From: Gammaproteobacteria bacterium
Lineage (GTDB): Bacteria; Pseudomonadota; Gammaproteobacteria; Poriferisulfidales; Poriferisulfidaceae
Assembly: GCA_026713705.1 (NCBI GenBank)
Contig: JAPONY010000051.1
Location: 1-62,014, forward strand
Length of the DNA: 62,014 bases
Direction: 5' to 3'
Part shown: in pieces, positions 12,388 to 62,014 of the stretch
How positions within the stretch are numbered: position 1 is the stretch's first letter
Layout: each line of letters begins with the position of its first letter
Position numbers and translations under genes: made by a program
The notes under the pieces: generated by a model
Database searches by the model: none
What the model saw: the letters and a program-made list of their open reading frames with translations, nothing else
Told to the model about the DNA's origin: nothing

Positions 12388-12744
12388 GGGGGTGACCTGG
12401 CTTCGACGGCGGTTACTGAATCCAAGGCGCATGCCGAGGCGGCAACGACCTCGTAAAAAAGGGTTGCGAAAAAATAGTTGCCAACGACGACAACTACGCA
12501 CTAGCCGCTTAATCCCGGTTAGTCATCCTTTCGGGAGATGCTTGTGGACCCCGATATGGATGTCGACTACACAAGATCGCCGTTCGGTCTGTCTGGAGCT
12601 GAAAGGTTAAATTCAACATGCAGGCTGGTGGTCATCGGGCCTTGTCCGTCGGGTGTTGACCATAAGACTAAAGACGGTGCTAAGCATGTAGGGCCGAAGA
12701 GGATGAACTGCCGGACGCGGGTTCGATTCCCGCCACCTCCACCA
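12388..12744 (+). ncRNA. ssrA: tmRNA; tag ANDDNYALAA* at 12480-12512
   Basis: 5' GGGGGTGACCTGGCTTCGAC; 3' T-arm GGTTCGATTCCCGCCACCTCCACCA; internal tag reading frame ending in TAA. Confidence 0.98.
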
Positions 12745-23862: not shown

Positions 23863-24035
23863 AATTTCTTTTGCCCTCCTATAAGAGGCTTTTTAGTTAT
23901 AGCTTGCAGTTAACTGCTTTTCAGCAAGCCCGTTTTACACCCAAACTTCCCTTTTAGCAAGTATGCTGAGGAAAATTCGCGAGTAATCTTGAAAAATCAA
24001 GGAATTAGATTTCACTGCTCCGGGTCCGGCACAGG

Positions 24036-25127
24036 TCAGTGCGGAAATGGCCAAGTTCGCAGTTTCTGCTTGGCCGTCAGCCACAGCGCGGCCAGTCCAC
24101 CCGGTTCGCGAATCAGCAACGCGATAATCAGGATGCCATATAAGATCTTGGCGACGTTGTCCACCACCGCAGTGTCGAATGCCCCGCCTAACAGGTAGTC
24201 GCCTGCCCAGGAAAAGAGGATCGGGAACTCGTACACCAGGACAGTGCCGTAGAACGACCCGGCGATCGAGCCGAGCCCGCCGATAATCACCATGAACAGG
24301 ATCTCGAACGAGCGGTTCATCTCGAAGGTGCGAATCCCAAGCACCTGCAGGTAGGCGTAGCAGAACAGCGCTCCGCCCACGCCGCAATAGAAGCAACTGA
24401 CGAAGAACGCCAGCATCTTGGTGCGTATCACAGGGATGCCGATCACGCTGGCTGCGATGTCCATGTCGCGGACCGCCATGAAATTTCGTCCGGTCGAACT
24501 TCGCATAAGGTTCTTGGCAAATAGCGCGAGTGCGCAGACAATCCCGAGGGACAGCAGGTATTTGGCCTCAAAGCTAGCCATATCCACGCCGAAGGCATCC
24601 CCGATCCCGAAGAGGTCGAAGTGATGATCCGGCAGGGTGACCGTGGCCGTCGCATAGTTCAGGAAGTACGGGTAGGAGCGGAAGAACCACAGCGCGAAAT
24701 ATTGCGCCGCCAGCGTCGACACCAGCAGATAGAAGCCTTTAATCCGGATGCTGGGTAGGCCGAAAATGACGCCGATCACGCCGGTCACCGAACCTGCCAA
24801 CACCATTGCCAGCGGCAGATTCATCCATTCCGGGCTGCGCAGCATGATGTTGAACGTAAAGAATGCGCCAAAGCACATGAAGCCCGCCGTGCCGAGCGAC
24901 AACTGCCCGGTCATGCCGGTGAGGAGGTTCAGGCCGAGTGCGGCACAGCCGTAGGCCAGGATCGGGATCAGGTGGGCAGCCAGCCAATAGTCGCTGGCGA
25001 TAAGGGGCACGACGAATACCATGAACAACAGGAACACGCCCATCGCCCATTTGTCGAAAGGAATCGGGAAGAGTTTCCGATCCTCGATATAGCTGGTGCT
25101 GAATGTGCCGGTTTCGCGATAAATCAT
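24036..25127 (-). CDS. LivM-type ABC permease
   Basis: GLNLLTGMTGQLSLG, RIKGFYL and MVIIGGLGS motifs. Confidence 0.92.
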   Translation of the reverse strand: MIYRETGTFSTSYIEDRKLFPIPFDKWAMGVFLLFMVFVVPLIASDYWLAAHLIPILAYGCAALGLNLLTGMTGQLSLGTAGFMCFGAFFTFNIMLRSPEWMNLPLAMVLAGSVTGVIGVIFGLPSIRIKGFYLLVSTLAAQYFALWFFRSYPYFLNYATATVTLPDHHFDLFGIGDAFGVDMASFEAKYLLSLGIVCALALFAKNLMRSSTGRNFMAVRDMDIAASVIGIPVIRTKMLAFFVSCFYCGVGGALFCYAYLQVLGIRTFEMNRSFEILFMVIIGGLGSIAGSFYGTVLVYEFPILFSWAGDYLLGGAFDTAVVDNVAKILYGILIIALLIREPGGLAALWLTAKQKLRTWPFPH

Positions 25128-25129
25128 GG

Positions 25130-26071
25130 CTAAACTCTCTCGATGGCTTTCAGCCCGAACAGCCCGGAAGGTTTAAACAGTAGGAAAACCAAGGCGATGA
25201 AGTAGGAGAACCAGGTCTCGATGCCTTGCACGCCCATCAAGTCGCCCAGATAAATCTCACCCATTTTTTCACCGACCCCAATGATCAGGCCGCCGACAAT
25301 GGCGCCAGGAATCGAGGTCAGGCCCCCGATCAGGATTACCGGCAACGCCTTGAGTACCGCCTCCACCAGCGTGAACGACACGCTAACCCGCTCGGCCCAC
25401 AGCAGACCCGCGATCAGCGCGATGATGCCGGTCACGGCCCACACCAGTGCCCACACCCGGGACAGCGGGATACCGACCGCCATGGCCGCCAAGTGGTCGT
25501 CGGAGACGGCGCGCAGCGACATCCCGGTTCGGGTCTTCTGGAAAAAGACTGCCAGTACCAGAATCATGGTGCCGGCCACAATCGTGGCAAAGACATCGAA
25601 TTTGGAGATCAGAATGTCCAGCCAATCAATGTAGTCGACGACGAAAACCGTCATATTGACTGGATCCAGCAGGGCCAGATCCAAGAAGTCTGCCAGCTGC
25701 AGGCCATGAATGGCGGAATCCCAGATATATTGGGACATGCCCTCGATCAAGATCGCCAGGCCGACCGTTGCCATGAACAGCGATAGCAAAGACTGGTTGG
25801 CCAGCGGGCGCATCATGAACCGCTCGACGAGAATCCCGAACACCACCATGGTGGCCATCGTGACGGCTAGCGCCACCCAGAAGTTCACGCTGCCCTCGGT
25901 CAGCTTCACGAAAGTCAACGCCGCAAACAGCAGCATGGTGCCCTGCGCGAAGTTGAAGATCCCGGAGGACTTGTAGATCAACACAAAGCCGATCGCCACC
26001 AGCGAGTACATGACGCCGGACATCAGCCCGCCGACAATCAGCTCGATGAAAAAGACCCAGTCGAAATCCAT
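25130..26071 (-). CDS. LivH-type ABC permease
   Basis: YSLVAIGFVLIYKSSGIFNFAQG and PSGLFG motifs. Confidence 0.92.
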   Translation of the reverse strand: MDFDWVFFIELIVGGLMSGVMYSLVAIGFVLIYKSSGIFNFAQGTMLLFAALTFVKLTEGSVNFWVALAVTMATMVVFGILVERFMMRPLANQSLLSLFMATVGLAILIEGMSQYIWDSAIHGLQLADFLDLALLDPVNMTVFVVDYIDWLDILISKFDVFATIVAGTMILVLAVFFQKTRTGMSLRAVSDDHLAAMAVGIPLSRVWALVWAVTGIIALIAGLLWAERVSVSFTLVEAVLKALPVILIGGLTSIPGAIVGGLIIGVGEKMGEIYLGDLMGVQGIETWFSYFIALVFLLFKPSGLFGLKAIERV

Positions 26072-32410: not shown

Positions 32411-33298
32411 ATGTCTCCTCCCCGGTCCTTTTCCGCTCTCCAAACCCGGCTCGAAATCTACGCCCGGCTGATCCGCCTGGACCGCCCGGTCGGCATCTGG
32501 CTGCTGTTGTGGCCGACCTTGTGGAGCCTGTGGCTGGTCTCCGGTGGCCTCCCCGCGACCCGCCTGCTGCTGATCTTCATTGCGGGGGTGATCCTGATGC
32601 GCTCGGCCGGATGCGCCATTAACGACTATGCGGACCGGGATCTGGACCGACAGGTCGACCGGACCCGCAACCGCCCACTGGCGCAAAAGGAGATTCCACC
32701 GCGCGAGGCGCTGTGGGTCACCGCCGCCCTGCTCGCCGGCGCGCTGGGGCTGGCCCTGATGCTGCCCCCGCTGACCCTGGCGCTGGCCGTGCCGGCTGCG
32801 CTGCTGGCCGCCACCTACCCGTTCGCCAAGCGCTGGCATCACCTGCCGCAACTGCATCTCGGCCTGAGCTTCGCCTGGGCCGTGCCGATGGCCATCAGCG
32901 CGTACACCGGAGGCTGGCCCGAAGCTTGGGGGTGGCTCGCGTTCATCGCCACCGTGCTGTGGGTCGTCGCCTACGACACGCTGTACGCGATGTCGGATCG
33001 GGAAGAAGACCTGGCGGCCGGCAATCGATCCACCGCCATCCTGTTCGGCTCCGCCGACCTCTTCATGGTGGGGCTGCTGCAGGGGCTATTCCTGCTGGCG
33101 CTGCTGCTGGTCGGAATTCGGCTCTCCCTGCCCCTCGCCTATTACGGAGGATTGGCGGCAGCCCTTACGCTGATCGCGAACCAGATGTGGCGGATCCGCG
33201 ACCGGAATCCGGAAGCCTGTTTCTGGGCCTTCAACAACAATGTCTGGGTCGGGGTGGCGGTCTGGGCAGGCATTGTTTCAGCAACATCCAGCCTATAG
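32411..33298 (+). CDS. ubiA: 4-hydroxybenzoate polyprenyltransferase
   Basis: RLDRPVGIWLLLWP, GCAINDYADRDLD and YDTLYAMSDREED motifs. Confidence 0.96.
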   Translation: MSPPRSFSALQTRLEIYARLIRLDRPVGIWLLLWPTLWSLWLVSGGLPATRLLLIFIAGVILMRSAGCAINDYADRDLDRQVDRTRNRPLAQKEIPPREALWVTAALLAGALGLALMLPPLTLALAVPAALLAATYPFAKRWHHLPQLHLGLSFAWAVPMAISAYTGGWPEAWGWLAFIATVLWVVAYDTLYAMSDREEDLAAGNRSTAILFGSADLFMVGLLQGLFLLALLLVGIRLSLPLAYYGGLAAALTLIANQMWRIRDRNPEACFWAFNNNVWVGVAVWAGIVSATSSL

Positions 33299-33390
33299 GA
33301 TGGAGAAAAAAGTAGTATGTAGACTGGAGTATTTGACAGCAACTAAAACTTGCTTTGAGAGCCAGGAGATTTCTCTCCGCAACTATTTAT

Positions 33391-34086
33391 TCAACATCTG
33401 TCCGTCCAAGCGTACAAGTTCCATAAGGGACCAATATAGTTATCATTACTTGGATACACCCTTTTTATTAGTTCTCGGATTTTTCTTACGTGTGATGCCT
33501 GCATAGTTTTAATCAGGTCAATCTGATCGTCATACCTATGTCCCAAGTCTGAGTGGTGTAGACGTAATTGTCTTGGCCCATGCCCTCCTGGGCCAGGTAT
33601 GTCATACAGGACTAATTCCATCGCCAGTTCACAAGACGCTTTACCAGTTTGAAGAAACTTGTTGACTTTTTTCGAGGAGGTCAGAGCTGGGAGAATTGGT
33701 TGCCGAGAGATTGAAGATTTGTGTTCTGTATTTTGCTGTTTGTGGATTTGACGCTTTTGATCTGCTAATTCTCGTTCACGGCGTTTTAATTCCTCTGTAC
33801 GGTGCCGCATCTCGGATTCCAGTTCTTGTTCACGTTTGCGGAGCAGCGTTTCTCGTTCATAGACTTGACGCTCTCTGCGTTCTAATTCTTGTTCACGGCG
33901 CTCCAAATCCTGCTCACGTTCGCGAAGCGTCTCTTCTTGCTCGCGGGTCTGACGTTCCTGTTCAGCTTGTTGACCAACTACGTCATCCAATATCCTCAAA
34001 ATAGTTCCCGCTTCACTTCCGACACTGATCTTCATTGGTAATAATGACATTACCAGCACTAAGAACAACGCAAATAGGGATTTCAT
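33391..34086 (-). CDS. Orphan secreted coiled-coil repeat protein
   Basis: Signal-peptide-like N-terminus from MKSLFALF; E/R/Q-rich heptads; AT-richer than its flanks. Confidence 0.65.
33765..33900. repeat. Degenerate internal repeats encoding RRE(Q/R)EL heptads
   Basis: CTAATTCTCGTTCACGGCG (33765-33783) and CTAATTCTTGTTCACGGCG (33882-33900) match at 18/19; further partial copies lie between them. Confidence 0.7.
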
Positions 34087-42928: not shown

Positions 42929-44656
42929 TCAGGACAAAATCATTTCGTTATGCGCCGCGCCCGGGGCGATCATCGGGAACACGTTCTCGCGCGGGTCGGT
43001 TATGAAATCGGCAAAGACCAGCCGGTCCTTGAGGCTAAGGATCTCGCGCAGAGCCGGCTCCACGTCTTTCGGCTTCTCGATCTTCATGCCGACATGCCCA
43101 TAGCTCTCCGCCAGTTTCACGAAGTCCGGCAACGCATCCATGTACGACATGGCGTAGCGGGAATCATAGAAGAAATCTTGCCACTGGCGAACCATCCCCA
43201 TATACCGGTTGTTCAGGTTGATGATCTTGATCGGCAGGCCGTATTGCCGGCAAGTCGACAGTTCCTGGATGCACATCTGGATACTCGCCTCGCCGGTCAC
43301 GCAGCACACCAATTCATCCGGATGGGCCAGTTGCACGCCCATCGCCGCCGGCAGCCCAAAACCCATCGTGCCAAGCCCGCCGGAATTGATCCAGCGTCGC
43401 GGTTGAGTGAATTTGTACAGTTGCGCCACCCACATCTGGTGTTGCCCCACGTCGGATGTCACGAACGCATCGCCGCCCGTCTGTTGGTACAGCTGATCCA
43501 GAACATACTGCGGCTTGATCTCTCCGTCCATGTCCTGTTGGTACGCAAAGGAATCCTTTTTCGCCCACTCACGGATTTGCCCCCACCACGGGGAAACGTC
43601 GGGCAGTGAATGCTTGCCGTCGCGCAACTCGTCCGTCAGTGCACGCAATACCTTTCGGGCATCGCCCACGACCGGGATATGCGCTCGGAAGTTCTTCGAG
43701 ATGGACGACGGATCGACATCCACGTGGATCACCTTGGCGTAGGGGCAGAAGCCATCCAGTCGCCCCGTAATCCGGTCGTCGAAGCGGGCTCCGACGGCAA
43801 TCAGGACATCGCTGTGGTGCATCGCCATGTTTGCTTCGTAAGAGCCGTGCATGCCCAGCATCTGGATGAACTGCGGGTCAGTGCCGGGGAAGGCACCAAG
43901 GCCCATCAGCGTGTTGGTGATGGGAAATCCGGTCAATCGCGTGAATTCGGCGAGTTCCTCATGGGCGCCGCTGGAAATCACCCCGCCGCCACTGTAGATG
44001 ATCGGGCGCTCGGCCTTCGCGATCAACTTGGCTGCCCGCTTAATCTGCCCCGCGTGCCCTTCCAGAGTTGGTTGGTAGGAGCGCATGTCCGGATCCTGCG
44101 GGTAGGAAAACACCCTGGACTGTTCCGTCACGTCCTTCGGGATATCCACCACCACCGGCCCCGGCCGCCCGGTCCCCGCGATATGAAACGCCCGCTTGAC
44201 CGCCAGCGGCAGATCCTCCACCTTCTTCACCAGAATGTTGTGCTTCACGCAAGGCCGCGTGATGCCGACGGTGTCGACTTCCTGGAAGGCGTCGTTGCCG
44301 ATCAGCGCAGTGCGCACCTGCCCGGTGAACACCACCAGCGGCACGGAGTCCATGTAAGCATCAGCAATACCGGTCACGGCGTTGGTCGCACCTGGACCGG
44401 AGGTCACCAGAACCACCCCGACTTTTCCGGTCGATTTGGCATAACCCTCGGCCGCATGTACCGCGCCTTGCTCGTGCCGGACCAGGATGTGATCCACTTC
44501 CTGTTGCTTGTGCAGTTCGTCGTAGATATGCAGCACGGCGCCGCCAGGGTAGCCGAACACGGTGGTGGCCCCTTCCTCAACTAGGCAGCGGATGAAGATC
44601 TCCGCGCCGTTCAGTTCCTGCGTCTCAGGATTCGAGCTTTGTTTCAAGTTGTCCAT
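42929..44656 (-). CDS. ilvI: Acetolactate synthase large subunit
   Basis: FGYPGGAVL, RHEQ, TSGPGATN, DVGQHQMW and GEASIQM...NN motifs. Confidence 0.97.
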   Translation of the reverse strand: MDNLKQSSNPETQELNGAEIFIRCLVEEGATTVFGYPGGAVLHIYDELHKQQEVDHILVRHEQGAVHAAEGYAKSTGKVGVVLVTSGPGATNAVTGIADAYMDSVPLVVFTGQVRTALIGNDAFQEVDTVGITRPCVKHNILVKKVEDLPLAVKRAFHIAGTGRPGPVVVDIPKDVTEQSRVFSYPQDPDMRSYQPTLEGHAGQIKRAAKLIAKAERPIIYSGGGVISSGAHEELAEFTRLTGFPITNTLMGLGAFPGTDPQFIQMLGMHGSYEANMAMHHSDVLIAVGARFDDRITGRLDGFCPYAKVIHVDVDPSSISKNFRAHIPVVGDARKVLRALTDELRDGKHSLPDVSPWWGQIREWAKKDSFAYQQDMDGEIKPQYVLDQLYQQTGGDAFVTSDVGQHQMWVAQLYKFTQPRRWINSGGLGTMGFGLPAAMGVQLAHPDELVCCVTGEASIQMCIQELSTCRQYGLPIKIINLNNRYMGMVRQWQDFFYDSRYAMSYMDALPDFVKLAESYGHVGMKIEKPKDVEPALREILSLKDRLVFADFITDPRENVFPMIAPGAAHNEMILS

Positions 44657-44878
44657 GCGATTGCTTAAAAGCCTCACGGAGAGCACGTCATGCCCTCGCG
44701 CGCTATTGTGCTCCAAAAGCCTTTATTTTTCAAATTGAAATGGCGATAAATACTTATTCCTCATCTAGAGAAAACGTTTCTTGTACTGCTTTGGTCAACC
44801 TATATACTCGGTTAACACTACACTTTATTTCTAACGGGCAAAAATCAAGCAGGTTCACCCTCTTACCAATAGCAGGTA

Positions 44879-46213
44879 TTATTCCTGATCAGGTATAGCA
44901 GCCCAACATTGAATCCATCTTTGTGTATCTGTACTTTCACCTGAATCAGCGCCATTAATTTCCACGTATAAATCCGGAGACCACTTTTGTTCCCATACTT
45001 TAATCGAAACCTTTTCTCCTGAGGCTTGTTCTTTTTCCGCCATCAGACTACACACCCACGTTTCATCCTTCGCTTGTGGACTGCGGAATCCATTCTCTTT
45101 TACATCAAAACCATCTTTGTACATTCTTTGCAACAACCCATTACGCATCTCAGCCTTTTCCCCGTCCATCCTTATTGCTGAGTCGGGAACCTCTTCCTGC
45201 ATAATTTCTTCTAAATTCCATGGAATATCTTCGAATCGAGTCTTGTCAGCATTCCATCGTATCCCGAGCCCAGACATCGTATTCCCTTTTGCGCGTTCAA
45301 TGAAGTACGCTAAGCTCGTTTGATTGCTGCTCTCGCGCAAACTTTTGATTCTTTCCAGCCATACACGCAACAAGTTTGCTAACCAGTCAGGATCAGCCGT
45401 CTCTTCTGGCGGTATCCCCCGATAGTCATTCCAAATCAATTGGGCAAATGCATTTAGCGGATGTCCGTGTTCTTCATACCATTTTTGCAAATCTCCTGTA
45501 CTATCAGCCGGTCTTCCATCGCTACTCTTGCGCCACAATCTTGGCTCCCGATATATTCTTTCCAGAATGTCTTCAAATTCCTTCAATAATTTCAGTTCGG
45601 GCATCCAAATTCTTTGCTTAGGGTGTTGTTGATGTGTCATCCACTGTACACATGCATCCCAAATAGCCAGCATGCAATCCACGCTATTGGGAGGGATTGG
45701 GCCTGGCTCGATTAGTGCATATCTCCATTGCTCATACCCCTTTCCTCCTGTCCCCGATACTTCTTTTAAGAACTTTTGCAAAGTCTTAATCCTTATGTAA
45801 TTGTGCAGTGACTGGAATCTTTTGTAATACTCGCTCAATACTCGCTTTGTTCTCTTGTCCATTTGCCCAAAAAGGCGGCTCAAATTGTGAGTGCGTAAGT
45901 TCGATTCTTCATCACTTAATAGGCATTCAATAGTTACCCCTCTTTCCATTGCAATCATGAATTTGAAACTCTGTTCAATTCCTGAATAGCCTGCAGCGAC
46001 AAATGCCCACCAGCTTGCTATTTGCGTTCCAGAATGTAGGTCCCATCCCCTTTCAGTTTTTTCGAATGCTTCTTGGCTTCTCTTTTGAGCACTTTTTAAT
46101 CGTTGAAATATTTCCCGCTGTTCATCCTGGGTCATCACATTTCCATTTTTTCTTTTACCTTTCGTCCTCTTGTGACGCGTGATCTTCAAGAGTATCGTCT
46201 TGAAAATTCTCAT
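44879..46213 (-). CDS. Hypothetical protein with an N-terminal HEPN-like domain
   Basis: Pattern GIEQSFK...RTHNLSRLF...YEQWRY matches the HEPN E..K / H.L..L / RY layout; ATGA overlap with res. Confidence 0.55.
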   Translation of the reverse strand: MRIFKTILLKITRHKRTKGKRKNGNVMTQDEQREIFQRLKSAQKRSQEAFEKTERGWDLHSGTQIASWWAFVAAGYSGIEQSFKFMIAMERGVTIECLLSDEESNLRTHNLSRLFGQMDKRTKRVLSEYYKRFQSLHNYIRIKTLQKFLKEVSGTGGKGYEQWRYALIEPGPIPPNSVDCMLAIWDACVQWMTHQQHPKQRIWMPELKLLKEFEDILERIYREPRLWRKSSDGRPADSTGDLQKWYEEHGHPLNAFAQLIWNDYRGIPPEETADPDWLANLLRVWLERIKSLRESSNQTSLAYFIERAKGNTMSGLGIRWNADKTRFEDIPWNLEEIMQEEVPDSAIRMDGEKAEMRNGLLQRMYKDGFDVKENGFRSPQAKDETWVCSLMAEKEQASGEKVSIKVWEQKWSPDLYVEINGADSGESTDTQRWIQCWAAIPDQE

Positions 46214-49200
46214 ATTGCAGCACGCATGTTGGCCTGCGCCAACACTTCGATTGAATCATTAATTTCAGATACCTCTTCGACCATGCGATAACACCATCTA
46301 CCATGACGATCATCCGCATTGACAGCTCCAACCCAACGTTCTGCAGCTGCCCTCTTGATCTCTTTCAAGTCATCATAAAACAACTTAGTCTCCAAAATTA
46401 GAATCAATTCTGCATCAGTACACTTCAGCCGAACTAAGAAATCTGGAATGTAGTCATGCATTTCGCCGTTGTGAAAATAAGGAATGCCGAAGCCCATCCC
46501 CTCATTCTTAGCGAATGCCAAAACCTTGGGGTGGTTATCCAAACAGTAGGCCGCTTTCCGTTCAAGCCCGCTGTCCGGCACCACCGCATTGATGTGACTC
46601 TTGAGTACAGGATAAGGCTCCCGTTTGGAGTAGAAATCGACATCGCCCGTTGATCCCATTTCACGCTGCCGCTCACAGCGCGGCAACTCAGGAATATCTC
46701 CGGCAGACGCATCCGGCTTAATGTATTGACACAAAGTTTCAACAATCCATCCATAGTAAGGGGCAAGGAAAACATCTTTTTTATCAGAAGGATGAGAGGC
46801 AGTGACTTTCCGTTCAATGTACGCGCACACTATTGGGAACAATTGCTGGAACAGAATGTTTGGAGGCAATTGGCAGCTAGCCTCTTCCGCATAGAACTTG
46901 GCTAGGGTTCCGGTGAGCTCATAGGCTCTTTGCTGCAGGCGGGTTTGACGAAAGCTTTTTAGATCTACTCCGCGCAATTCCCCGGGTCCGCTGATCGAGG
47001 GGATTCCCGAATTGGATGGCAGGCCGGCTTTCATCTGTACCTCTGGCGGGATTTTCTCGGCATTGATACACACGGGGGGTATCTTCTTCATATCGCAACT
47101 TAGCCCAATTCTTATGCTTTGGTAATACCCTTCCACACGCGGAAAACTGATTGCCAGGTCTTGTCTGTCTGGTAGGGCATGGATGTGGTGCCGTGCAACT
47201 TTCTTCGGAGAGTCCCCTCCTTTTTTCACTTTGACCGTAAAGGCAGATAGCGGAACACCCAGTACTGTCGCGATTTCCTCGGGCAAGTGTCCGTTTTTGC
47301 CTATTTCGTAGGAAGTGCGCCGCAAGCCCCGTCCAATCACCTGTTCGCATAGCAACTGCGACATGAATGGGCGCAATCCGATTATGTGCGTCACCGTATT
47401 GCAATCCCAACCTTCGGTCAGCATCCCAACACTCACGATGCAACGGACGTCACGGCCTGGCGGATATTTCTCACGCCCCAGTTTGTCGGCCAATTCCACG
47501 AAACCCTCAGGGTATTGCTCTCTGCCTTGCCTGTCACGAGGCCAATTACCTCGGCCAATCGTGTCGAGCGTGTGCCGCATCCAACGGGTCTCGTCGGTTC
47601 TCGCGACGCCACTCTCAATCTCCACCTGCATATCCGAGTACACGCAGATGGTGTTTTCTTGATTCAGAGCATTCTTAAGTTCGGGCAGGCCAGCCCGTGG
47701 GATGGTCGGCGTTGGAGGCTGATCTTCGGCAATCCAGTCATACACGATGTTTGCCAGTTTTTTCGTCTTGCAGATGACGATCAGAACCGGCTGGTACGAA
47801 TCTTCCAGTTGACCCAGTTCCTGATGCAGGTCCTGCCACATGCCTCCCATCATGGCGATTGGAGTATGAGCGTATTTGAGGGTTGCTTCCGGCTTAGCGC
47901 CTGCCTTCTTCCCCCCACGCTCGGTCGCCGTGAGCTTTGGCAGTATCCATTTCCAGATGTTGAAATAACCAGGCACGGTGGCTCCGCTGGAGTCGCGTGC
48001 CGCAAGTTGCGGGATTTTCACCAGGCCAGATTCGATGGCGTCCTGCAAACCGAAGCTGCTCGCAGTCCATGGAAATATGCGGTTGGTGTTCGCACCTGCC
48101 TGACCCAAAAAGTACGGTGTAGCAGAAAAGTCCACGCAGAAATTTATGCCACGTAGATTATTGATCTTATCCAGCCCATCTACCCAGGTGGTCGCCTCTC
48201 TATAGTAGTACTCGGCGGCCTCGTCCTCTTCGTCGATAATGCCGTTACCTTCTCCAGAGGACTGTAGTCGGTAGGCATGGTGCGCCTCGTCATTGAGCAC
48301 GAGAATGTTCTTCTTGGAGCCGAGTTCCTTCTCCAATACGCGCCTCACCAAGGCGGCATCAGTTTCCATGTATTTCTCCGATTCAACCTCGACTTTTTTC
48401 AAACTGCCGCTTGAGTCGCGATGTTCGTTCCGCACTCGCAGCAGATTCAGCGCCTGTTGCTGGCGAAGGTGGTCCTCAGTCATGTATCGTTTGCCACGTG
48501 CCGTCATGGCCTTGTCGCCAATGAAAACAGTTTCCTTTACGAGAACGCGCTGACCCGCCTTGACCACCTTGCTGCCCCCCTGAGTGCTACGTGGCTCGAA
48601 TATGTGCCAGTTGGTAGTAAAAAATTTCCCTTTCGTCAAATCAGCCATCATGGCTGGTGGAACCAAGTCTCGGGTTTGGTAGATGCTCGCGTCTCCCCTT
48701 TGCGGGTTCAATTCTGCCAAGCGATCTCGGATAGTTACATTCGGACACACTACCAGGATGGCATCCGAAAACCTCGTGTCACCCTTGTTTGCCACCTTGT
48801 TCAATATGCTCCATGCCGTCAGCATGGCCATCACCGTAGTCTTGCCTGTGCCTGTGGCCATCTGGCAACAATACCTTTTGAAAGCCTTGAATCCGTCCCG
48901 CTGTTTTTTCTCCCCCATCTCCTCAAGCGGAATGTTGATGCCCTGCTGAAAATCCAGTCTGGCCTCGGTCAAGAAGATGATGGCTTCGGCCGCTTCCAGT
49001 TGGGCGAAGAACAACGGCTGCTCACGCCCTTCGCGCCGCCAGTATTTCAGCAGGTCCATGGTCGTGCGGCTCACCCCCCCCTCACCCTGCAGGGCATGGG
49101 GGCGCCAGTCAGCCAATCGTTGCCGAATCAGGGCGACTTGCTCTAATTTTATTTCATAACCGACATCCTGTTCCTCGTCGTCGTCTGCCACTTTTCCAGT

Positions 49201-49335
49201 CGGCAGGTACATGTAGGTCGGTTCGCGCCGGCTGTTGATTAACTCTGGTGGCTCGTGTTCATGGATTTTCCAATGCCGCGAGGGCTCTTCGTAGGGAGAG
49301 CTGATAATCGGCTCATTGACTTCGTGTGCAGGCAT
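46210..49335 (-). CDS. Type III-like restriction Res subunit (SF2 helicase plus nuclease; BPTD_3080-like)
   Basis: SPYEEP.RHW, MATGTGKT, NDEAHH, SATP, LTEGWD and QVIGRGLRR motifs; C-terminal PDF...ETK. Confidence 0.88.
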   Translation of the reverse strand: MPAHEVNEPIISSPYEEPSRHWKIHEHEPPELINSRREPTYMYLPTGKVADDDEEQDVGYEIKLEQVALIRQRLADWRPHALQGEGGVSRTTMDLLKYWRREGREQPLFFAQLEAAEAIIFLTEARLDFQQGINIPLEEMGEKKQRDGFKAFKRYCCQMATGTGKTTVMAMLTAWSILNKVANKGDTRFSDAILVVCPNVTIRDRLAELNPQRGDASIYQTRDLVPPAMMADLTKGKFFTTNWHIFEPRSTQGGSKVVKAGQRVLVKETVFIGDKAMTARGKRYMTEDHLRQQQALNLLRVRNEHRDSSGSLKKVEVESEKYMETDAALVRRVLEKELGSKKNILVLNDEAHHAYRLQSSGEGNGIIDEEDEAAEYYYREATTWVDGLDKINNLRGINFCVDFSATPYFLGQAGANTNRIFPWTASSFGLQDAIESGLVKIPQLAARDSSGATVPGYFNIWKWILPKLTATERGGKKAGAKPEATLKYAHTPIAMMGGMWQDLHQELGQLEDSYQPVLIVICKTKKLANIVYDWIAEDQPPTPTIPRAGLPELKNALNQENTICVYSDMQVEIESGVARTDETRWMRHTLDTIGRGNWPRDRQGREQYPEGFVELADKLGREKYPPGRDVRCIVSVGMLTEGWDCNTVTHIIGLRPFMSQLLCEQVIGRGLRRTSYEIGKNGHLPEEIATVLGVPLSAFTVKVKKGGDSPKKVARHHIHALPDRQDLAISFPRVEGYYQSIRIGLSCDMKKIPPVCINAEKIPPEVQMKAGLPSNSGIPSISGPGELRGVDLKSFRQTRLQQRAYELTGTLAKFYAEEASCQLPPNILFQQLFPIVCAYIERKVTASHPSDKKDVFLAPYYGWIVETLCQYIKPDASAGDIPELPRCERQREMGSTGDVDFYSKREPYPVLKSHINAVVPDSGLERKAAYCLDNHPKVLAFAKNEGMGFGIPYFHNGEMHDYIPDFLVRLKCTDAELILILETKLFYDDLKEIKRAAAERWVGAVNADDRHGRWCYRMVEEVSEINDSIEVLAQANMRAAI

Positions 49336-50993
49336 TACAGGTTGAAATGGTCCGCGACAGTATCCAGGGTCTCAATCACATTGGGATGGATTTCATCAGG
49401 CAGCATGGCCGAGGCAATCTCATCGTAGCGGGTGTAGGAAAAACCATGCAGCCCGGCCCGATCAAGAACAAGCGGCAGAATGTCGCGGCGGGCCTTCAGG
49501 GCTACCAGCGTAGCGTGATCGCCCAGAGGGTCATTGATCGCACTTTCGGGCAGGATGCCCTCCAAGGCTTTCTTCATGGATTGAATGGAGGCCAGGGGTG
49601 AATTCTCGCCCGCTGCCATCCCCACAAATCGAGCAAGAGAGTCAGGGTGCACCAAATAACTCTCAATTTCGTAACGAGCCCAGCACAATTTCAGAAGATT
49701 GCCTCCAGCCGCCTCCTGTCGGGCTGGAATGTTTTCATTACCATCCCGGTCAACGACCTGCACTCCTCGCATTCCCTCCTGAACCAGTAAAAGTGCATCG
49801 AAATGCTCTTGAGCCTTAATCCCTTTCCCTTGGCTTCGCATTTCAAACACCACCGGCTTCCAAAACGGTCGTTGCAGGAAATCCGCCAGTGGATGTTCTA
49901 GGGACGACGCCCATTCCATCAGGATGTTCAGGTCGGTCCGCCCTTCGACATAGAGGATTCGCTCTTTTTCCTGAGCCAGCAAAATATCCGTATTCGAAAG
50001 AATGGAAAGCGAGCGAATCAGTGACGACTTACCATCTTCGCTTGCCAATTTTCGAGGGTGCCCCAGCATAGCAAGCAGGTCTCTTGGCTCAACCGCATTG
50101 ATGACCGCGTCGGAGTGAGTGGCGATGATAAGTTGGGAATTGGATTTCCGCGCGATTTTCTTCAACTGTCCATATATTGTGTCCTGCAGAATCACATGCA
50201 GGTGCGCATCCGGCTCATCCAATAACAGGACACTACCCTTTTGCTGAATCAGAAAAGTCAGCAAAAGCAGTGCCTGAAGAAACCCGCTGCCTGCCGAATT
50301 GATGTCAAGCCTAACTCCATCGGGACTCTGCCGGTACTCGGCAAGGATATGCGCACCAGTATCATCCGGCGGCAGCAACTCGTAACCGAACATGCGCTCA
50401 ATTAAGCCTGTCAGACAATCCCATGCGTCTTGGTCGCTGCTGATTTCGGCTAAGAGGTTGCGCAAAACATCGCCGGATTTCCCTTGCCCTAGCAATTGGT
50501 TGATTTTCGGCCTCTGGTATACAGGCTCATCGACCCCTAGACCACTCACGGAGGGAACAAAAAACACCTGGTAAGAATCCTTCGCTTTCTTGAGAATTTC
50601 AAGTGTCACATCCTTGGACGGTCGGACATACACCTGTTCACTGCTGTCTCTCTCCACCTCTATGCAGATTGACCCCATATCGGTCGTAATGCCTAGTTCG
50701 ATCCTGTTCTGACCATTAAATTTCCCATCACTCCACAGTAGGTCAAAGTTCCGCAACGGGACGGAATAAAATGTCTGCCGCGTGACGGGAGCCTTGGCGT
50801 AGAAGCCTCCATGTTTCTGGAAATCGTTCAGTTCAAACCAACGCTCCAGCGCCAGCGACCATGTCGCGATGGCCTGAAGCAAAGTCGTTTTTCCGGAGTT
50901 GTTGGGTCCGGCAACAGCAAGATTACCTTCAAGATCAAATCTTTCCTCATGGAAACACTTGAAATTTCGAATGACGGCTTGGGTGATTTTCAT
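49335..50993 (-). CDS. ABC-type (AAA_15/21-like) ATPase fused to a TOPRIM domain (OLD/PARIS-like)
   Basis: Walker A GPNNSGKT, signature SAGSG, Walker B LLLDEPDAHLH, ATHS; TOPRIM motifs YVEGRTD, DRD and RYEIESYL. Confidence 0.8.
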   Translation of the reverse strand: MKITQAVIRNFKCFHEERFDLEGNLAVAGPNNSGKTTLLQAIATWSLALERWFELNDFQKHGGFYAKAPVTRQTFYSVPLRNFDLLWSDGKFNGQNRIELGITTDMGSICIEVERDSSEQVYVRPSKDVTLEILKKAKDSYQVFFVPSVSGLGVDEPVYQRPKINQLLGQGKSGDVLRNLLAEISSDQDAWDCLTGLIERMFGYELLPPDDTGAHILAEYRQSPDGVRLDINSAGSGFLQALLLLTFLIQQKGSVLLLDEPDAHLHVILQDTIYGQLKKIARKSNSQLIIATHSDAVINAVEPRDLLAMLGHPRKLASEDGKSSLIRSLSILSNTDILLAQEKERILYVEGRTDLNILMEWASSLEHPLADFLQRPFWKPVVFEMRSQGKGIKAQEHFDALLLVQEGMRGVQVVDRDGNENIPARQEAAGGNLLKLCWARYEIESYLVHPDSLARFVGMAAGENSPLASIQSMKKALEGILPESAINDPLGDHATLVALKARRDILPLVLDRAGLHGFSYTRYDEIASAMLPDEIHPNVIETLDTVADHFNL

Positions 50994-51292
50994 TGGGAAA
51001 TTTCTTTGCGGTGAAGTATTCCGTCCGGACTTTCTGCAGCATACTCTGATCCATCAACCTTTTCGCAAGACACCGTATCCGGATTCTTCCACGGACTCAC
51101 CACAACATCCCGACCTAGACTTTGAGGTGTCGCAATATGGAATTCGTTTGATGCGATTTGACGTGCTTTGTTCTCATCGCTCGCCCGCACGATTAATTCC
51201 CCCTTGAATGTACTTGCGTTCCAATTCCTGCTCGCAGGGTCGATAGGCATCAACCTCCAGATGAATTTATCCTGCGCTATTTGCTGTGCCAT
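50990..51292 (-). CDS. Small hypothetical protein (~100 aa) inside the R-M operon
   Basis: Strong RBS AAGGAGG before ATG 51292; stop overlaps the ATPase start (ATGA). Confidence 0.7.
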   Translation of the reverse strand: MAQQIAQDKFIWRLMPIDPASRNWNASTFKGELIVRASDENKARQIASNEFHIATPQSLGRDVVVSPWKNPDTVSCEKVDGSEYAAESPDGILHRKEISQ

Positions 51293-51314
51293 CTGCCTGC
51301 CTCCTTCCAACTGC

Positions 51315-53999
51315 CTATTTTGCAGTAACCTTTTTGATCACCATCAGCTCATTCCCCCGGTCGTCGATCACCTTGACTGCGACCTGCTCCCCAGCAATAA
51401 ATGGAGCACTGACAGACCCCCGTAAGTGATCCCAAACAGTGTCGTCAAAATCTGCTTTCACTGCCTTGCGGATTTTCTCCCACGCGCCCGTACGCGGAAA
51501 AAACACCTGCCCGGCACGGAAACATTGCCCATCGTAGTCGGGATCCAGCATCCAGCAAGGCACATCGTCGCCTTGTCGTGAATCGACTTCCATGTTCGCT
51601 GGATCAAAAACGTCCAGCCCCAGCAACTCCACTTGCCATAGCTGATCTCCCTCCTCTGTCTTTTCGTCCACCTTCCTCAGTTCAATGTCGGGCAACCCGC
51701 ATACTGAGAAAATTTGACTGGAACGCATGTTCTTTAGGAGATCGGACATCACCACATCGGTGCTGGCTTGAACATACGTGGATGGTAAATCGAGACTTTC
51801 CTCACTGTGTTCAATGGTTTCGCGGGCGGCAGGCTCTATCGCAAATGCGATCACCAGCAATTGGGCGTAATCTTTATTGCGCGCCTCTCGTCCAGCATCC
51901 ACCACCGACCGCTCACTAATAGCCCCGTTGGCAGGGCCGAAAACAATAGCGAGCAATTGGCTGTCGTCGGCAGATTCGGCTTCGGCATGCAGATTCAAGG
52001 ATTTTGCGGGCGGGCGGATGTTTTTTATCTTGAAAGTCTTATTGTCCGGCAAGCGTATGGTTGGCACCAGTCTCAATATCTCGATCATTCGCTCGATATG
52101 ATCTCTTTCGCCCTCTACATCCACTCTGTTACCAGTCTGCTGTGGTTCGACGCCCTCTACTTCATCCTTCGATGCGACATCAGGCGCAACAGGTATCGGC
52201 AAAACAGCTTCCACGCAAAAAGGACCGCTAATTCGGGTCACTTTCCGATCAACTTCCGGTTGGTCCACCAGAACTTCCTCGACTGGAGGCTCATCGTTAG
52301 CAATGGATTTCAGCGTGATGCGTGGCACAATGCCCCCCACCTCTTCGCCTTTTGCGTTTTTCTTTCGTATGTACACGAAACCAGCGCCAGGCCCGCGCTG
52401 TCCATCCTTCAGCTGATAGTAGGGATACGTGGCGGTCAGCAGGCGCTGGCGAGTCAGAGCTAACGGAACTCGGGAAATGTCGCTGGTAATCCAGCGCCGC
52501 CCCCATTTTTCCGCCACAAAAGCGCTGGTGCCTCCACCGCAAGTGGGATCAAAAATAAGGTCCCCTGGGTCAGTGGTCATCAGCAAGCATCTCTGAATGA
52601 CCTTAGCGGATGTTTCGACAACATATTGTTTGTCGCTCGCATATCCTGCGATTCCCGTGTCCGGCCACATGTTGTTAATTTTTTTGCAGGGAAAGTCGTG
52701 CAGATAGCGGATATATCCAAGATTTTTTCCGACAATGCCAATCCGCCTTGCTGCAATCAGTTTGTCCATGCCTAATCGACCGGTTTTCCAACTGCCTTTA
52801 GAAATCTCGAACGTCCGCCCTTCAAACTCAATGGAATATTGTCCCCCTTTTGATGCGGTCTGGCTTCGCAAGTCGCCGTATCTGAACACCCGACACTCAT
52901 CGGGCAATGCCTTTCGCCCTTCTCTTTCTTCTTTCGTCATAGCGCGGCGAGTACCGTCCTGTAATTCAACGTGTCTATACGCGCCATCTGGTTCCATAGC
53001 CTTTCTCAACCAGATCTTTCGAGTCTTGACTTTATCTATATCTTTCGCAAACCAAACGAGATAATCCCCGGTGGTTTCCAAGTTCTTGTTGCCTAAACCT
53101 GAAGTGGTCGCATAGCTGATTAAACTGACGAAATTCTCCCGACCGAATACCTCATCCATGATGTTGCGGACGAGATGCACATTCTCGTCTGAAATCTGGA
53201 CAAAACAGGAGCCAGACTCTGTTAGCAGGTCCCTCGCTAAAAACAGACGGTCCCTCATATAAGTTAGCCAAGAATGCGTGCCTAACTCCCATGTATCCCG
53301 GTATGCCTGAACCATTTCCGGTTCGCGGCTGATGTTGTCGTCATCCCCGTCCTTTACTTCCCGATTTCGAACAAACGGCTGGAAATTACTTCCGTACTTC
53401 ACTCCGTAGGGCGGGTCCATGTAGACCATCTGCACCTGCCCTCCCATATTTTCATACTCCAAGAGTGAATTCATTATCTGGAGGGAGTCTCCGAGAATCA
53501 ACCGATTCTGCCAGCCGTTCATGTGCTCGTATGCGCCGCGGATTTTCTCGCCGATGGACTTCTCCCCTTCCCCAAACAGATCCAGCGTCTGCTGCCGGTC
53601 TCGCTTATGCCGCTTCAAAGTTTTGAGGACAGCCTCCGTGGAAAGTCGCTCATGCACGAAGAGAGGCAAGGTCGGGACGGAAATCTTTTCGCGCTCAGCC
53701 TTGCCCGCCCAATCCAAGAACGGTCGCGACATGTTTTTCAGTTTCTCTGCGGCTCGCCTAGCCTCGTTCAAACTATCGCTGTCGATAATCTCGCCTATGA
53801 GCCGCTCACCCTCGCTTCGAGCCTGCGCCTCATCCCAAGCAAGCGTTGGAGCTAATGAAGAATCGTAACGATACGATTTCGGTCCCTTTTTCTTCGAAGA
53901 CGGGAACATATCCTGAGAACCGCCCTCCGGCCTCAGTAAGGCTTTCTTGTCGCCATGACGATAGTCGCGTGGCGGCGGCTTCGGGGTTGACCTAGGCAT
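51315..53999 (-). CDS. Type III-like Mod DNA methyltransferase (beta order)
   Basis: NRLILGDSL, motif IV DPPY preceding motif I DPTCGGGT; C-terminal VKVIDDRGNE. Confidence 0.92.
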   Translation of the reverse strand: MPRSTPKPPPRDYRHGDKKALLRPEGGSQDMFPSSKKKGPKSYRYDSSLAPTLAWDEAQARSEGERLIGEIIDSDSLNEARRAAEKLKNMSRPFLDWAGKAEREKISVPTLPLFVHERLSTEAVLKTLKRHKRDRQQTLDLFGEGEKSIGEKIRGAYEHMNGWQNRLILGDSLQIMNSLLEYENMGGQVQMVYMDPPYGVKYGSNFQPFVRNREVKDGDDDNISREPEMVQAYRDTWELGTHSWLTYMRDRLFLARDLLTESGSCFVQISDENVHLVRNIMDEVFGRENFVSLISYATTSGLGNKNLETTGDYLVWFAKDIDKVKTRKIWLRKAMEPDGAYRHVELQDGTRRAMTKEEREGRKALPDECRVFRYGDLRSQTASKGGQYSIEFEGRTFEISKGSWKTGRLGMDKLIAARRIGIVGKNLGYIRYLHDFPCKKINNMWPDTGIAGYASDKQYVVETSAKVIQRCLLMTTDPGDLIFDPTCGGGTSAFVAEKWGRRWITSDISRVPLALTRQRLLTATYPYYQLKDGQRGPGAGFVYIRKKNAKGEEVGGIVPRITLKSIANDEPPVEEVLVDQPEVDRKVTRISGPFCVEAVLPIPVAPDVASKDEVEGVEPQQTGNRVDVEGERDHIERMIEILRLVPTIRLPDNKTFKIKNIRPPAKSLNLHAEAESADDSQLLAIVFGPANGAISERSVVDAGREARNKDYAQLLVIAFAIEPAARETIEHSEESLDLPSTYVQASTDVVMSDLLKNMRSSQIFSVCGLPDIELRKVDEKTEEGDQLWQVELLGLDVFDPANMEVDSRQGDDVPCWMLDPDYDGQCFRAGQVFFPRTGAWEKIRKAVKADFDDTVWDHLRGSVSAPFIAGEQVAVKVIDDRGNELMVIKKVTAK

Positions 54000-54102
54000 G
54001 CACTGCATTTTACGATACCCTGTGGAAACAATCACAAGTTCACTTCTCTGACCACTGGATGCCGAAATATCGGAAATACTCCTTGTTTCGACCCAGAATC
54101 AA

Positions 54103-54333
54103 ATGACCCTGCTAGCCACAGTCCGCAAGCATCTTGGAATCAAAGGCGGCGATGTCATGCTGCTGAATGGCCATGGTGGAGAAATAACCCTAAGGTCCGG
54201 TATAACCATTGAAATCCAGCACTACAGCGACGAACAAATTGCGCAATGGGACGCCAATGACCAACTGGAACCACAGGAGAAAGCCCGCATACTAGACACT
54301 GTATCCCGTCTCAAGAGTAAAACGGTTTCCTAA
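54103..54333 (+). pseudogene. AbrB/MazE-like antitoxin, probably degenerate
   Basis: QMTLLATVRKHLGIKGGD resembles GQ.TLP..R..LGI..GD; similarity appears to extend upstream (EILLVSTQNQ) without a start codon. Confidence 0.6.
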
Positions 54334-61379: not shown

Positions 61380-62014
61380 ATGGCTGCTGAGAAGCCCGTA
61401 TTAATCCTCATTTGCGGCATCAATGGTGCGGGGAAAACCACGTTCTACTACGAACAGGTCAAGCCCCTCCTTGATCGGTCCGGGCGCGAGTATCCATTCG
61501 TCAATGCGGACGAAATAGAGGAAGCCAAGTTTCCCAATGAAGTCGGAGAACACGGCCCAGAGATAGGCAAGCTGACCGCTGAAATCCGCGACCAGTACTT
61601 AAAGGCGAGGCAGTCTTTCATCACCGAAACGGTTTTCTCTCATGAGTCGGAAAACCGACTCGTTGAAGATGCCCAAAAAGCCGGATTCGAAGTCATGCTG
61701 AACCATATCCATGTCAATTCCGCGAGACTGGCTTACAAGCGGGTTCGAGATCGGGTCGGCTCCGGCGGCCACGACGTGCACAAAGACAAAATCTTCTCGC
61801 GTTACGACCGCACCGTGGGCAATATCCAAAAAGCGAGCATGGTTGCCGATCGCACCTATGTTTGGGACAACTCCCGCCAATCCGGCCACTCAGGCGTGAT
61901 TTACCGGTTCGTTATGACGATGGCCATGGGCAAAATCATCAGACTTGCGGGCCCCCTACCCGACTGGGCGCATAAGATGTACCGAGCCCAGATCGAAGAC
62001 TTTAATAAAAGACG
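61380..62014 (+). CDS. Zeta-toxin-like P-loop ATPase, incomplete at the window end (absent from the ORF track)
   Basis: Translated by hand: MAAEKPVLILICGINGAGKTT...FVNADEI...FITETVFSHES...RVRDRVGSGGHDV...SRYDR...WDNS; no stop before 62014. Confidence 0.85.
   Translation, partial: MAAEKPVLILICGINGAGKTTFYYEQVKPLLDRSGREYPFVNADEIEEAKFPNEVGEHGPEIGKLTAEIRDQYLKARQSFITETVFSHESENRLVEDAQKAGFEVMLNHIHVNSARLAYKRVRDRVGSGGHDVHKDKIFSRYDRTVGNIQKASMVADRTYVWDNSRQSGHSGVIYRFVMTMAMGKIIRLAGPLPDWAHKMYRAQIEDFNKR

Follow-up and report, generated by a model that had tools for sequence, protein, structure and literature searches.

An OLD-like ATPase/Toprim gene conserved between mod and res of a type III-like restriction-modification operon, with two probable passenger genes

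Do five tightly coupled genes of a gammaproteobacterial contig make up one defence system, or are they a conserved core that carries passengers? The genes lie in a stretch of 62,014 nucleotides (nt), the whole of which was analysed and is called the window below: positions 1 to 62,014 of the forward strand of contig JAPONY010000051.1, assembly GCA_026713705.1 (Gammaproteobacteria; Poriferisulfidales; Poriferisulfidaceae). They are the mod and res genes of a type III-like restriction-modification (R-M) operon, a 100-aa open reading frame (ORF), a fused ABC-ATPase/Toprim gene that we call OLD-like, and a last gene, g5, with a HEPN-like domain. An earlier note, made from the letters alone, had read the locus as a single layered system in which restriction acts first and two effectors stand behind it as guards or abortive-infection (Abi) back-ups. 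That unity was not borne out by our analysis: the conserved unit consists of mod, the OLD-like gene and res only.

The five ORFs are co-oriented and occupy the minus strand over 44879-54035, in the order mod, 100-aa ORF, ATPase/Toprim, res and g5. Here our reading agrees with the earlier note in the gene order, in the calls (type III-like mod and res, an ABC-ATPase-Toprim fusion and a HEPN-like last gene) and in the translational coupling of the genes. The product of mod (51315-53999, minus strand, as are all five) is predicted to be a type III-like N6-adenine DNA methyltransferase of the beta class, 894 aa long from the ATG at 53999 or 906 aa from a GTG at 54035. The TAG stop codon of mod is followed by a 22-nt spacer (51293-51314) with a GGAGG ribosome-binding site, and then by the ATG at 51292 of the small orphan ORF (50990-51292; 100 aa, or 106 aa from a TTG start at 51310). 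The gene of the putative OLD-family ABC-ATPase/Toprim nuclease (49335-50993; 552 aa), the conserved third gene of the module, overlaps the small ORF in an ATGA at 50993-50990. A TAATG at 49337-49333 joins it to res (46210-49335), the product of which is a 1041-aa protein of the BPTD_3080 family, predicted to be a superfamily 2 (SF2) helicase with a C-terminal PD-(D/E)xK-like nuclease. Finally, an ATGA at 46213-46210 joins res to g5 (44879-46213), a predicted abortive-infection ribonuclease (RNase) of 444 aa from the ATG at 46213, or of 419 aa from the ATG at 46138. All of these junctions were read directly in the sequence and are those that had been listed before; the last of them is less certain than the others. 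A variant about 95% identical to the operon, found in low-depth contigs of a sponge-metagenome run (X7), has 65 other letters in place of 46155-46222, which makes the g5 start at 46213, and with it the overlap with res, less certain than the start at 46138. The 419-aa form appears the likelier one from the sequence. A scan for promoters and terminators gave sites that were no commoner than in shuffled sequence (9 versus 9.5, and 12 versus 10.5).

We searched the window's own genome and 60 relatives with the curated model of the BPTD_3080 family (NF046055); 13 of the 61 genomes gave matches above the cut-off, and 18 stretches were fetched. The ATPase gene was found between mod and res in all six loci with a close Res (63-75% identity; 6 of the 61 genomes), whereas it was lacking from all 12 loci whose Res is distant (about 30% identity). 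A scan of metagenomes with an alignment of the ATPase detected 504 relatives; the best 80 were retained, and 66 of these have an identity of at least 41%. Among these 66, mod was located upstream in 51 of the 57 testable loci (within 120 nt in 50) and res downstream in 50 of 52 (within 120 nt in 47). The three proteins have also diverged in step. Across 23 complete loci, the Mantel correlations of pairwise distances were 0.81 for ATPase and Res, 0.73 for ATPase and Mod, and 0.90 for Mod and Res; in each comparison all 999 permutations fell short of the observed value, and the kinship of the loci inflates statistics of this type. Synteny and correlated divergence together show that mod-OLD-res is a widespread unit whose genes are inherited together. 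The arrangement is not due to chance, and the order recurs in dozens of independent loci; as DNA the core is therefore widespread rather than new, though we found no name for it in print. When the co-occurrence of the three accessory genes with this Mod/Res pair was scored, as the earlier note had proposed, the ATPase/Toprim gene was found to accompany the pair, the small ORF was not, and g5 was so in one relative only.

The R-M proteins themselves were assigned as follows. Mod matches Pfam N6_N4_Mtase (1.3e-24) and the PADLOC model MTase_III PDLC03632 (513 bits), and its motif IV (DPPY at residue 195) is N-terminal to motif I (FDPTCGGG at 483), which is the beta-class order. Res matches NF046055 with 922.6 bits against a cut-off of 800, in an alignment that spans residues 7-1030 and model positions 2-967 of 970. 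It also matches Pfam ResIII (1.1e-09, 38.8 bits) and has the motifs GTGKT at 162, DEAH at 349, PDF at 964 and ETK at 982. Pfam RE_endonuc stayed below its cut-off (16.8 versus 23.4), so that it is only the motif that supports a nuclease in Res. The canonical type III Res model NF012027 gave 19.5 bits against a cut-off of 564, and PADLOC REase_III just 30 bits; since the canonical Res model is not matched, we call this R-M type III-like. In type III enzymes, Mod methylates self DNA and the Mod-Res complex carries out the ATP-dependent cleavage of unmodified DNA; cleavage requires two inversely oriented unmethylated sites, and methylation by Mod is hemimethylation. We considered and rejected a phase-variable epigenetic regulator ("phasevarion"): no simple-sequence repeat suggestive of phase variation was found in mod, and Res is intact. 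In one close relative (genome G017, locus L027, 14721-17397), mod is in two pieces, ORFs of 622 and 259 aa, and may be frameshifted; the ATPase gene and res of that locus are intact.

The 552-aa protein encoded between them matches Pfam AAA_15 (83.6 bits) and AAA_21 (80.3 bits), both above the cut-offs. Its best PADLOC matches are AriA (88.9 bits), NsnB and the fused AriAB (63.4 bits, model positions 321-552 of 694), and phmmer related it to the OLD protein 6p74 at 9.8e-07. Its AlphaFold2 (AF2) model (pLDDT 85) gave a full-length Foldseek alignment with 6p74 (Thermus scotoductus OLD; E 8.7e-13, 638 columns) and an alignment over 647 columns with GajA (8sm3). The ATPase motifs are GPNNSGKTT at 29 (Walker A), SAGSG at 233 (signature) and LLDEPD at 257 (Walker B). 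The Toprim motifs are YVEGRTD at 348, DRDG at 415 and YEIE at 441, of which YVEGRTD and DRDG (the Toprim glutamate and DxD) are conserved across 34 sequences. No Pfam model, Toprim included, matched residues 282-552, and DUF4435 was absent at E <= 1. By its motifs and its predicted structure, the protein is an OLD-family ATPase/Toprim nuclease. It belongs to a large ATPase superfamily, with 7298 of 8000 scored candidates at E <= 1e-20, and has no close relatives in viral contigs, where the best match was 35% identical.

Distant homologues of this ATPase (36-40% identity) occur without this Mod/Res. We scanned the neighbours of four such loci with Pfam. One of them is beside an MmeI-like enzyme, two are inside DUF1156-methylase/DUF499 loci (L110, 11798-15133; L103, 6519-12258), and the fourth has a SNF2 helicase and a NOV_C-domain protein as neighbours. 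The two DUF1156/DUF499 loci contain further genes: a SNF2 helicase as well in L103, and in L110 a Schlafen/AlbA_2-type ATPase and a Swt1-type HEPN domain fused to DUF499. The placements beside the MmeI-like enzyme and in the DUF1156/DUF499 loci show that relatives of the OLD-like ATPase are found repeatedly inside modification-based systems.

The 100-aa ORF at the mod/OLD junction had no relatives in our searches. Its sole match among 5.8 billion proteins was itself, no family was found for it in Pfam, PADLOC, NCBIfam or PHROGs, and tblastn gave no match in 80 metagenome or 18 genomic loci. In the locus of the same-genus relative, the blastn match to the window (72-77% identical) breaks at 50994-51326, where about 118 nt stand versus 332 in the window. 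By this comparison of sequences, the ORF is a window-specific replacement at the junction. Two of the sponge-metagenome runs contain it without differences from the window: a contig of X6 covers the whole ORF, and one of X5 reaches 51206. ESM Atlas gave leads only, placing the ORF near clusters of unnamed proteins of ~90 aa (score 0.93, 222 of 256 features; TM 0.77-0.86), one of which is half viral. We regard the ORF as probably a real small gene, of a fast-evolving kind.

The family of g5 is rare. A word-based search gave 26 proteins, and an exhaustive profile search of 1.84 billion representatives gave 360 at E <= 0.001 and 96 at E <= 1e-30; the profile matches include forms of ~285 aa without the C-terminal domain. 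Only four g5 loci were found in 185,579 species genomes. Among 400 genomes of the window's class, g5 was present in the window's own genome only, and no relative was found in viral contigs. The gene follows res in one of the six close loci, that of the same-genus relative, and in none of the 25 metagenome loci in which res is complete and over 500 nt of sequence lie beyond it. Elsewhere its neighbours are different: in one genomic locus it lies directly upstream of an Eco57I-like methylase and a BsuBI/PstI-like endonuclease (a type II R-M), in another it comes after RNase R with an Abi_C gene nearby, and in the third it is located among small ORFs. Given these differing neighbours and its rarity after res, g5 is a portable module that tends to defence neighbourhoods, and not a subunit of this R-M.

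What g5 might do was addressed mainly through its predicted structure. The protein had no match in Pfam, PADLOC, NCBIfam or PHROGs, any HEPN sequence model included; the family profile found none of the PDB sequences at E <= 10, and in ten distant or fused members of the family no Pfam family was above threshold. The AF2 model (pLDDT 88.2, pTM 0.87) predicts a HEPN-like N-terminal domain (residues 1-175), a helical middle and an alpha/beta C-terminal domain. In a wide VIA-align search of 48,161 chains, the top nine rows were all of the HEPN fold and all on g5 residues 1-175 (the HEPN domain of Csm6, HepT toxins, AbiV, YutE, TT1696 and HI0074), with Z 6.9-7.8, though the range of Z 7-8 is also reached by common helical arrangements according to the tool's own note. 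It is the uniformity of this list, and not its Z scores, that supports a HEPN fold. The C-terminal domain showed likeness to KA1, the N-domain of RNase H3 and the NRD of RnlA (Z 5-6.7), which we set aside as too weak for use.

Conservation within the family singles out several positions of the N-terminal domain. S52-G-I/V-E-Q-S57 and K59 are invariant (23 of 23 sequences), as are H84 and H112 (25 of 25), and R139 is found in 24 of 25. A candidate motif R107x4H112xY114 is present in 22 of 25 family sequences, and we take it to resemble the Rx4HxY motif of HepT. The protein is also predicted to form a homodimer, with an ipSAE of 0.46 versus 0.00 for the best of three controls; in the calibration, 20 of 30 solved pairs attained the mark, as against 1 of 23 single chains. 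The dimer runs share 92% or more of their contacts, with a partner pLDDT of 81 or higher. Residues 2-74 and 139-148 form a symmetric predicted interface, which takes in the conserved SGIEQS segment and R139. Such a predicted dimer supports a HEPN-style arrangement with a composite site. Besides the limited meaning of the Z scores, it speaks against a HEPN assignment that Foldseek searches of the PDB with the g5 model gave nothing at E <= 0.001 and that no HEPN sequence model matched, and also that the candidate arginine R107 is missing in 3 of 25 family members. Overall, judging from the models, we consider it fairly likely that g5 is a HEPN-like RNase. The locus in this way yields a rare and unnamed family with a HEPN-like fold and a candidate role in defence.

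The two passengers, the 100-aa gene at the mod/OLD junction and g5 after res, sit where this R-M family generally takes cargo. The interval between mod and res varies in relatives of both Res subfamilies. In it we found AAA_15 ATPases of two sizes, ~490 aa (PD-T4-4_A-like, partners 150-190 aa) and ~435 aa (NsnB/PDC-M55A-like, partners ~190 aa), AAA_21 together with DUF4276, a HEC-01A-like ATPase, an E2/E1-JAB/DUF6527 cassette (present in 5 of the 12 loci of the distant subfamily, including one on another contig of the window's own genome), a CAP12/Pycsar-type TIR protein (L018, 6976-7800) and a Fic/SoFic-like protein (L015, 7747-8892). After res, in the position of g5, one close relative (L028) has an AbiJ_NTD4/DUF7014 gene with a weak HEPN match. 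Several of the cargo proteins match models from a study of embedded defence genes (HEC-01A, PDC-M55A, PDC-S32), the accessible text of which describes such genes inside Hma, BREX, DISARM and type I R-M systems (10.1101/2024.01.29.577857). The classic example of such embedding is PrrC (PMC12707154, accessible text). The BPTD_3080 R-M extends the embedding of defence genes to a type III-like host system. Its operons accept defence cargo of many kinds and, if the two positions are general docking sites for Abi modules, would be a rich source for searches by "guilt by embedding".

The window's own genome also contains a second R-M of the BPTD_3080 family (L020; contig C92, 22500-42000). Its mod-res interval holds an NsnB/PDC-M55A-like AAA_15 ATPase, accompanied by a partner of 189 aa, and a Prok-E2_E/ThiF+JAB/DUF6527 cassette, a ubiquitin-like conjugation module; this layout recurs in 5 of the 12 distant-subfamily loci.

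The operon is set apart from its surroundings in the window. It lies between ilvI (42929-44716, minus strand) and a small AbrB-like ORF (54103-54333, plus strand), and GC content is 0.44-0.55 over 45-54 kb versus about 0.59-0.66 in the flanks, where Pfam identified housekeeping genes: ilvI/H/C to one side, and to the other an AcrB-type pump. One 1426-nt contig of run X7, with a depth of 80.3, connects 44743 with 54134 by a stretch of 169 other letters. Since it differs from the window by 15 letters on one side of this joint and by 27 on the other, the contig comes from a related organism with an empty site. The GC dip and the empty-site contig give approximate bounds of 44744-54133, and the 9.4-kb block so delimited behaves as a horizontally acquired island. 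No flanking direct repeat was found at the island and no integrase or transposase was seen there; in the same-genus relative, the module does not adjoin ilvI or acrB. The same run X7 includes low-depth contigs about 94-95% identical to the operon, with the small-ORF region included. Identical pieces of the operon were found in X5 and X6, two further sponge-metagenome runs, one piece bridging res, the ATPase gene, the small ORF and the start of mod; these come from the same population as the window and are not independent evidence.

The small ORF at the far border of the island (54103-54333, plus strand) is divergent from mod and encodes 76 aa. By eye it is like AbrB/MazE-type proteins; it had no match in Pfam, PADLOC or PHROGs, and its first 31 nt are inside the boundary implied by the empty-site contig. 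Elsewhere in the window we noted a transfer-messenger RNA gene (12388-12744, plus strand; tag peptide ANDDNYALAA) and, cut by the window end, a zeta-toxin-like/AAA_33 kinase ORF (61380-62012, plus strand; Pfam Zeta_toxin 1.8e-12), which may be part of a toxin-antitoxin pair. Other anomalies of GC content are 0.445-0.471 at 1-2000 and 0.498 at 33-34 kb (33001-34000), versus about 0.55-0.67 elsewhere in the window, and AT skew is +0.21 to +0.24 at 24-26 kb (24001-26000).

How might such a locus work? What follows on activities, on a trigger and on any physical coupling is what we infer beyond the gene identities, the synteny, the island, the fold and the predicted dimer given above. The explanation that we favour, at slightly better than an even chance, is that the locus is an acquired island made of a mod-OLD-res core and two lineage-specific passengers, with the OLD-like protein tied to the R-M enzyme and g5 an independent RNase. 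Mod would mark host DNA, and the Mod-Res complex would cut invading DNA that is unmodified. The OLD-like protein would be functionally tied to this enzyme, either as a latent nuclease released when restriction is blocked, that is, a guardian similar to PrrC or PARIS, or as a second ATP-driven nuclease that acts with the R-M enzyme, like MAD3-MAD4 in the MADS system. The HEPN-like g5 would work independently, as a dimeric RNase that shuts down translation when the cell is infected; most likely, judging from its model, it acts on its own in abortive infection. The layered logic of guards and abortive infection that the earlier note had put forward is plausible by analogy with these systems. The fixed position of the OLD-like gene, its tight coupling and its co-divergence favour some functional tie, and the intact nuclease motif of Res and the existence of a sister subfamily without an OLD gene argue against an obligatory role in cutting. 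We rank the possible roles of the OLD-like protein as guardian or assistant, then autonomous passenger, then obligatory effector. There is also a bolder version, to which we give clearly less than an even chance: that the OLD-like protein is an obligate partner (a guard of the enzyme against anti-restriction proteins, or a second ATP-driven nuclease) and an OLD class of its own, that the slots are general docking sites for Abi genes, that g5 founds a new family of HEPN RNases and that the small ORF encodes a new protein.

Several observations weigh against the tie between the OLD-like protein and the R-M enzyme. mod was missing in 6 of the 57 metagenome loci and res in 2 of the 52. In L080 and L094, which are short contigs, an AAA_21/DUF4276 pair or a DUF4276 gene is directly upstream of the ATPase gene, which suggests that cargo between mod and the ATPase gene explains these two misses; further metagenome loci without mod or res are L037, L058, L077, L090 and L096. 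Co-inheritance is no proof of co-function, and a hitch-hiking autonomous gene in a mobile operon can give the same pattern. Because Res keeps its own motifs and the distant Res subfamily is without an OLD gene, restriction probably does not need the OLD-like gene. Single-gene OLD-like proteins, moreover, can defend alone, as does HEC-04 in the accessible text of 10.1101/2024.01.29.577857. In the extreme, the OLD-like, 100-aa and HEPN-like genes would all be autonomous and would simply ride in the R-M operon, sharing with it co-transfer and co-expression only and neither sensing nor aiding restriction. Embedding of unrelated defence genes is common and has been used to find working systems, HEC-04 among them (same source, accessible text); this R-M family bears many cargo types at the same positions, g5 occurs without the operon, and distant ATPase homologues are found in other contexts. 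We nevertheless judge such pure embedding rather unlikely, for the OLD-like gene is fixed (6/6; 51/57; 50/52) whereas the other cargo varies, it is usually a few bases from both of its neighbours, and it diverges in step with Res (r 0.81). There is also the precedent of PrrC, which is almost only found embedded in one R-M type and is functionally coupled to it (10.1101/2024.01.29.577857, according to the legend of Figure 6).

The opposite extreme, that the OLD-like protein is the main or obligatory DNA-cutting effector and Res chiefly a translocase and sensor, seems to us improbable. The gene has its fixed position and co-diverges with Res, relatives of the ATPase are found in DUF1156/DUF499 methylase loci, and in MADS both MAD3 and MAD4 are required for defence and their complex cleaves DNA (PMC13662399, in its accessible part). 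However, Res keeps a PD...ExK-like motif and matches a curated model over its full length, the sister subfamily of Res does without an OLD gene and works, or at any rate persists, and the window's protein matches the curated MAD3 model with 46.3 bits against a cut-off of 420. Very improbable, and largely refuted by the distribution of the genes, is an integrated system of five co-evolved proteins, with restriction and two guards. The tight translational coupling of all five window genes would be in line with it, as would the same layout at about 94-100% identity in other sponge-metagenome runs, but these runs hold near-identical populations and not independent lineages. The small ORF has no counterpart in the same-genus relative, in any of the 80 metagenome loci or among 5.8 billion proteins, and g5 follows res in only one of six close relatives and none of the 25 testable metagenome loci. 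In other places g5 is next to an unrelated type II R-M, close to an Abi_C gene, or by itself.

Compared with known systems, each part of the locus is of a known kind; what appear to be undescribed are the fixed three-gene combination, the R-M family as a carrier of cargo, and the g5 family. We found no description of the mod-OLD-res module or of the BPTD_3080 family in the literature searched, subscription papers and supplements being outside the search; PMC12392090 and the accessible part of PMC10853773 contained nothing relevant. The closest match for the R-M genes is type III R-M (EcoP1I/EcoP15I), which has likewise a beta-class Mod, a Res with SF2 and PD-(D/E)xK-like domains, and mod upstream of res in one operon. 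Unlike in type III systems, the canonical Res model is unmatched and mod and res are not adjacent, being parted by two genes in the window (the 100-aa ORF and the ATPase gene) and in relatives by at least the ATPase gene, the one that is conserved. The toxins and Abi proteins of the HEPN class (HepT, AbiV, the HEPN domain of Csm6, RnlA, AbiJ) are like g5 in the fold of its N-terminal domain and in the predicted symmetric dimer formed through that domain; they differ in that g5 has no match to a sequence model, has two extra domains, and is without an antitoxin or MNT partner nearby. The nesting of cargo in a multi-gene defence operon is what "guilt by embedding" exploits, although that study covered, in the accessible part of its text, Hma, BREX, DISARM and type I R-M and not type III-like R-M.

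The remaining comparisons concern the OLD-like protein and its link with modification. It resembles PARIS in having an ABC ATPase with a Toprim nuclease, and in its PADLOC matches to AriA and AriAB. PARIS is triggered by anti-restriction proteins such as Ocr, and its effector cleaves tRNA. In the window, by contrast, no DUF4435 was found by Pfam and the model of AriAB is matched only in part; PARIS is typically located on phage satellites and in prophage hotspots, whereas viral contigs held no close relatives of the window gene. Fused single-gene forms of PARIS exist (accessible text of PMC9122126), and PARIS acts as a guardian (PMC12707154, likewise in part). PrrC, which in the available text of the latter combines an ATPase and an anticodon nuclease in one protein and is embedded in a type Ic locus, is similar in that an ABC-ATPase effector gene is inside an R-M operon (EcoprrI) and a HEPN-type nuclease is present in the locus. 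The window's genes do not form a PrrC system: here the ATPase is fused to Toprim, the HEPN-like gene is separate and dispensable, and the R-M is type III-like. MADS, a methylation-based defence that requires an OLD-like MAD3-MAD4 module (PMC13662399, accessible part), is alike in containing an OLD-like ATPase/Toprim module. We do not assign the locus to it, as MADS comprises eight genes, keeps ATPase and nuclease in separate proteins and uses another methylase, compared with five genes here and a score on the MAD3 model (NF047739) far below the cut-off.

Within the OLD family (Class 1, with P2 Old and 6p74, and the single-gene HEC-04), the protein has the expected ABC ATPase followed by Toprim in one polypeptide, and keeps the Toprim glutamate and DxD. 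The accessible texts of PMC10568477 and PMC12796447 divide this family into stand-alone, Gabija, retron, PARIS and archaeal classes, with at least 11 clades uncharacterised. In the same texts, Class 1 proteins are stand-alone genes with variable neighbourhoods, and the window's clade is set apart from them by its fixed Mod and Res neighbours. Class 2 (Gabija) does not apply either, the downstream gene being the BPTD_3080 Res, nor does Class 3 (retron effectors), as there is no reverse transcriptase in the five genes or the Pfam-scanned flanks, where non-coding RNA was not searched for. The OLD clade fixed between mod and res would be a further context-defined class, with a clear and testable partner, and it bears on how first-line restriction is wired to second-line nucleases, the question that PrrC, PARIS and MADS also raise.

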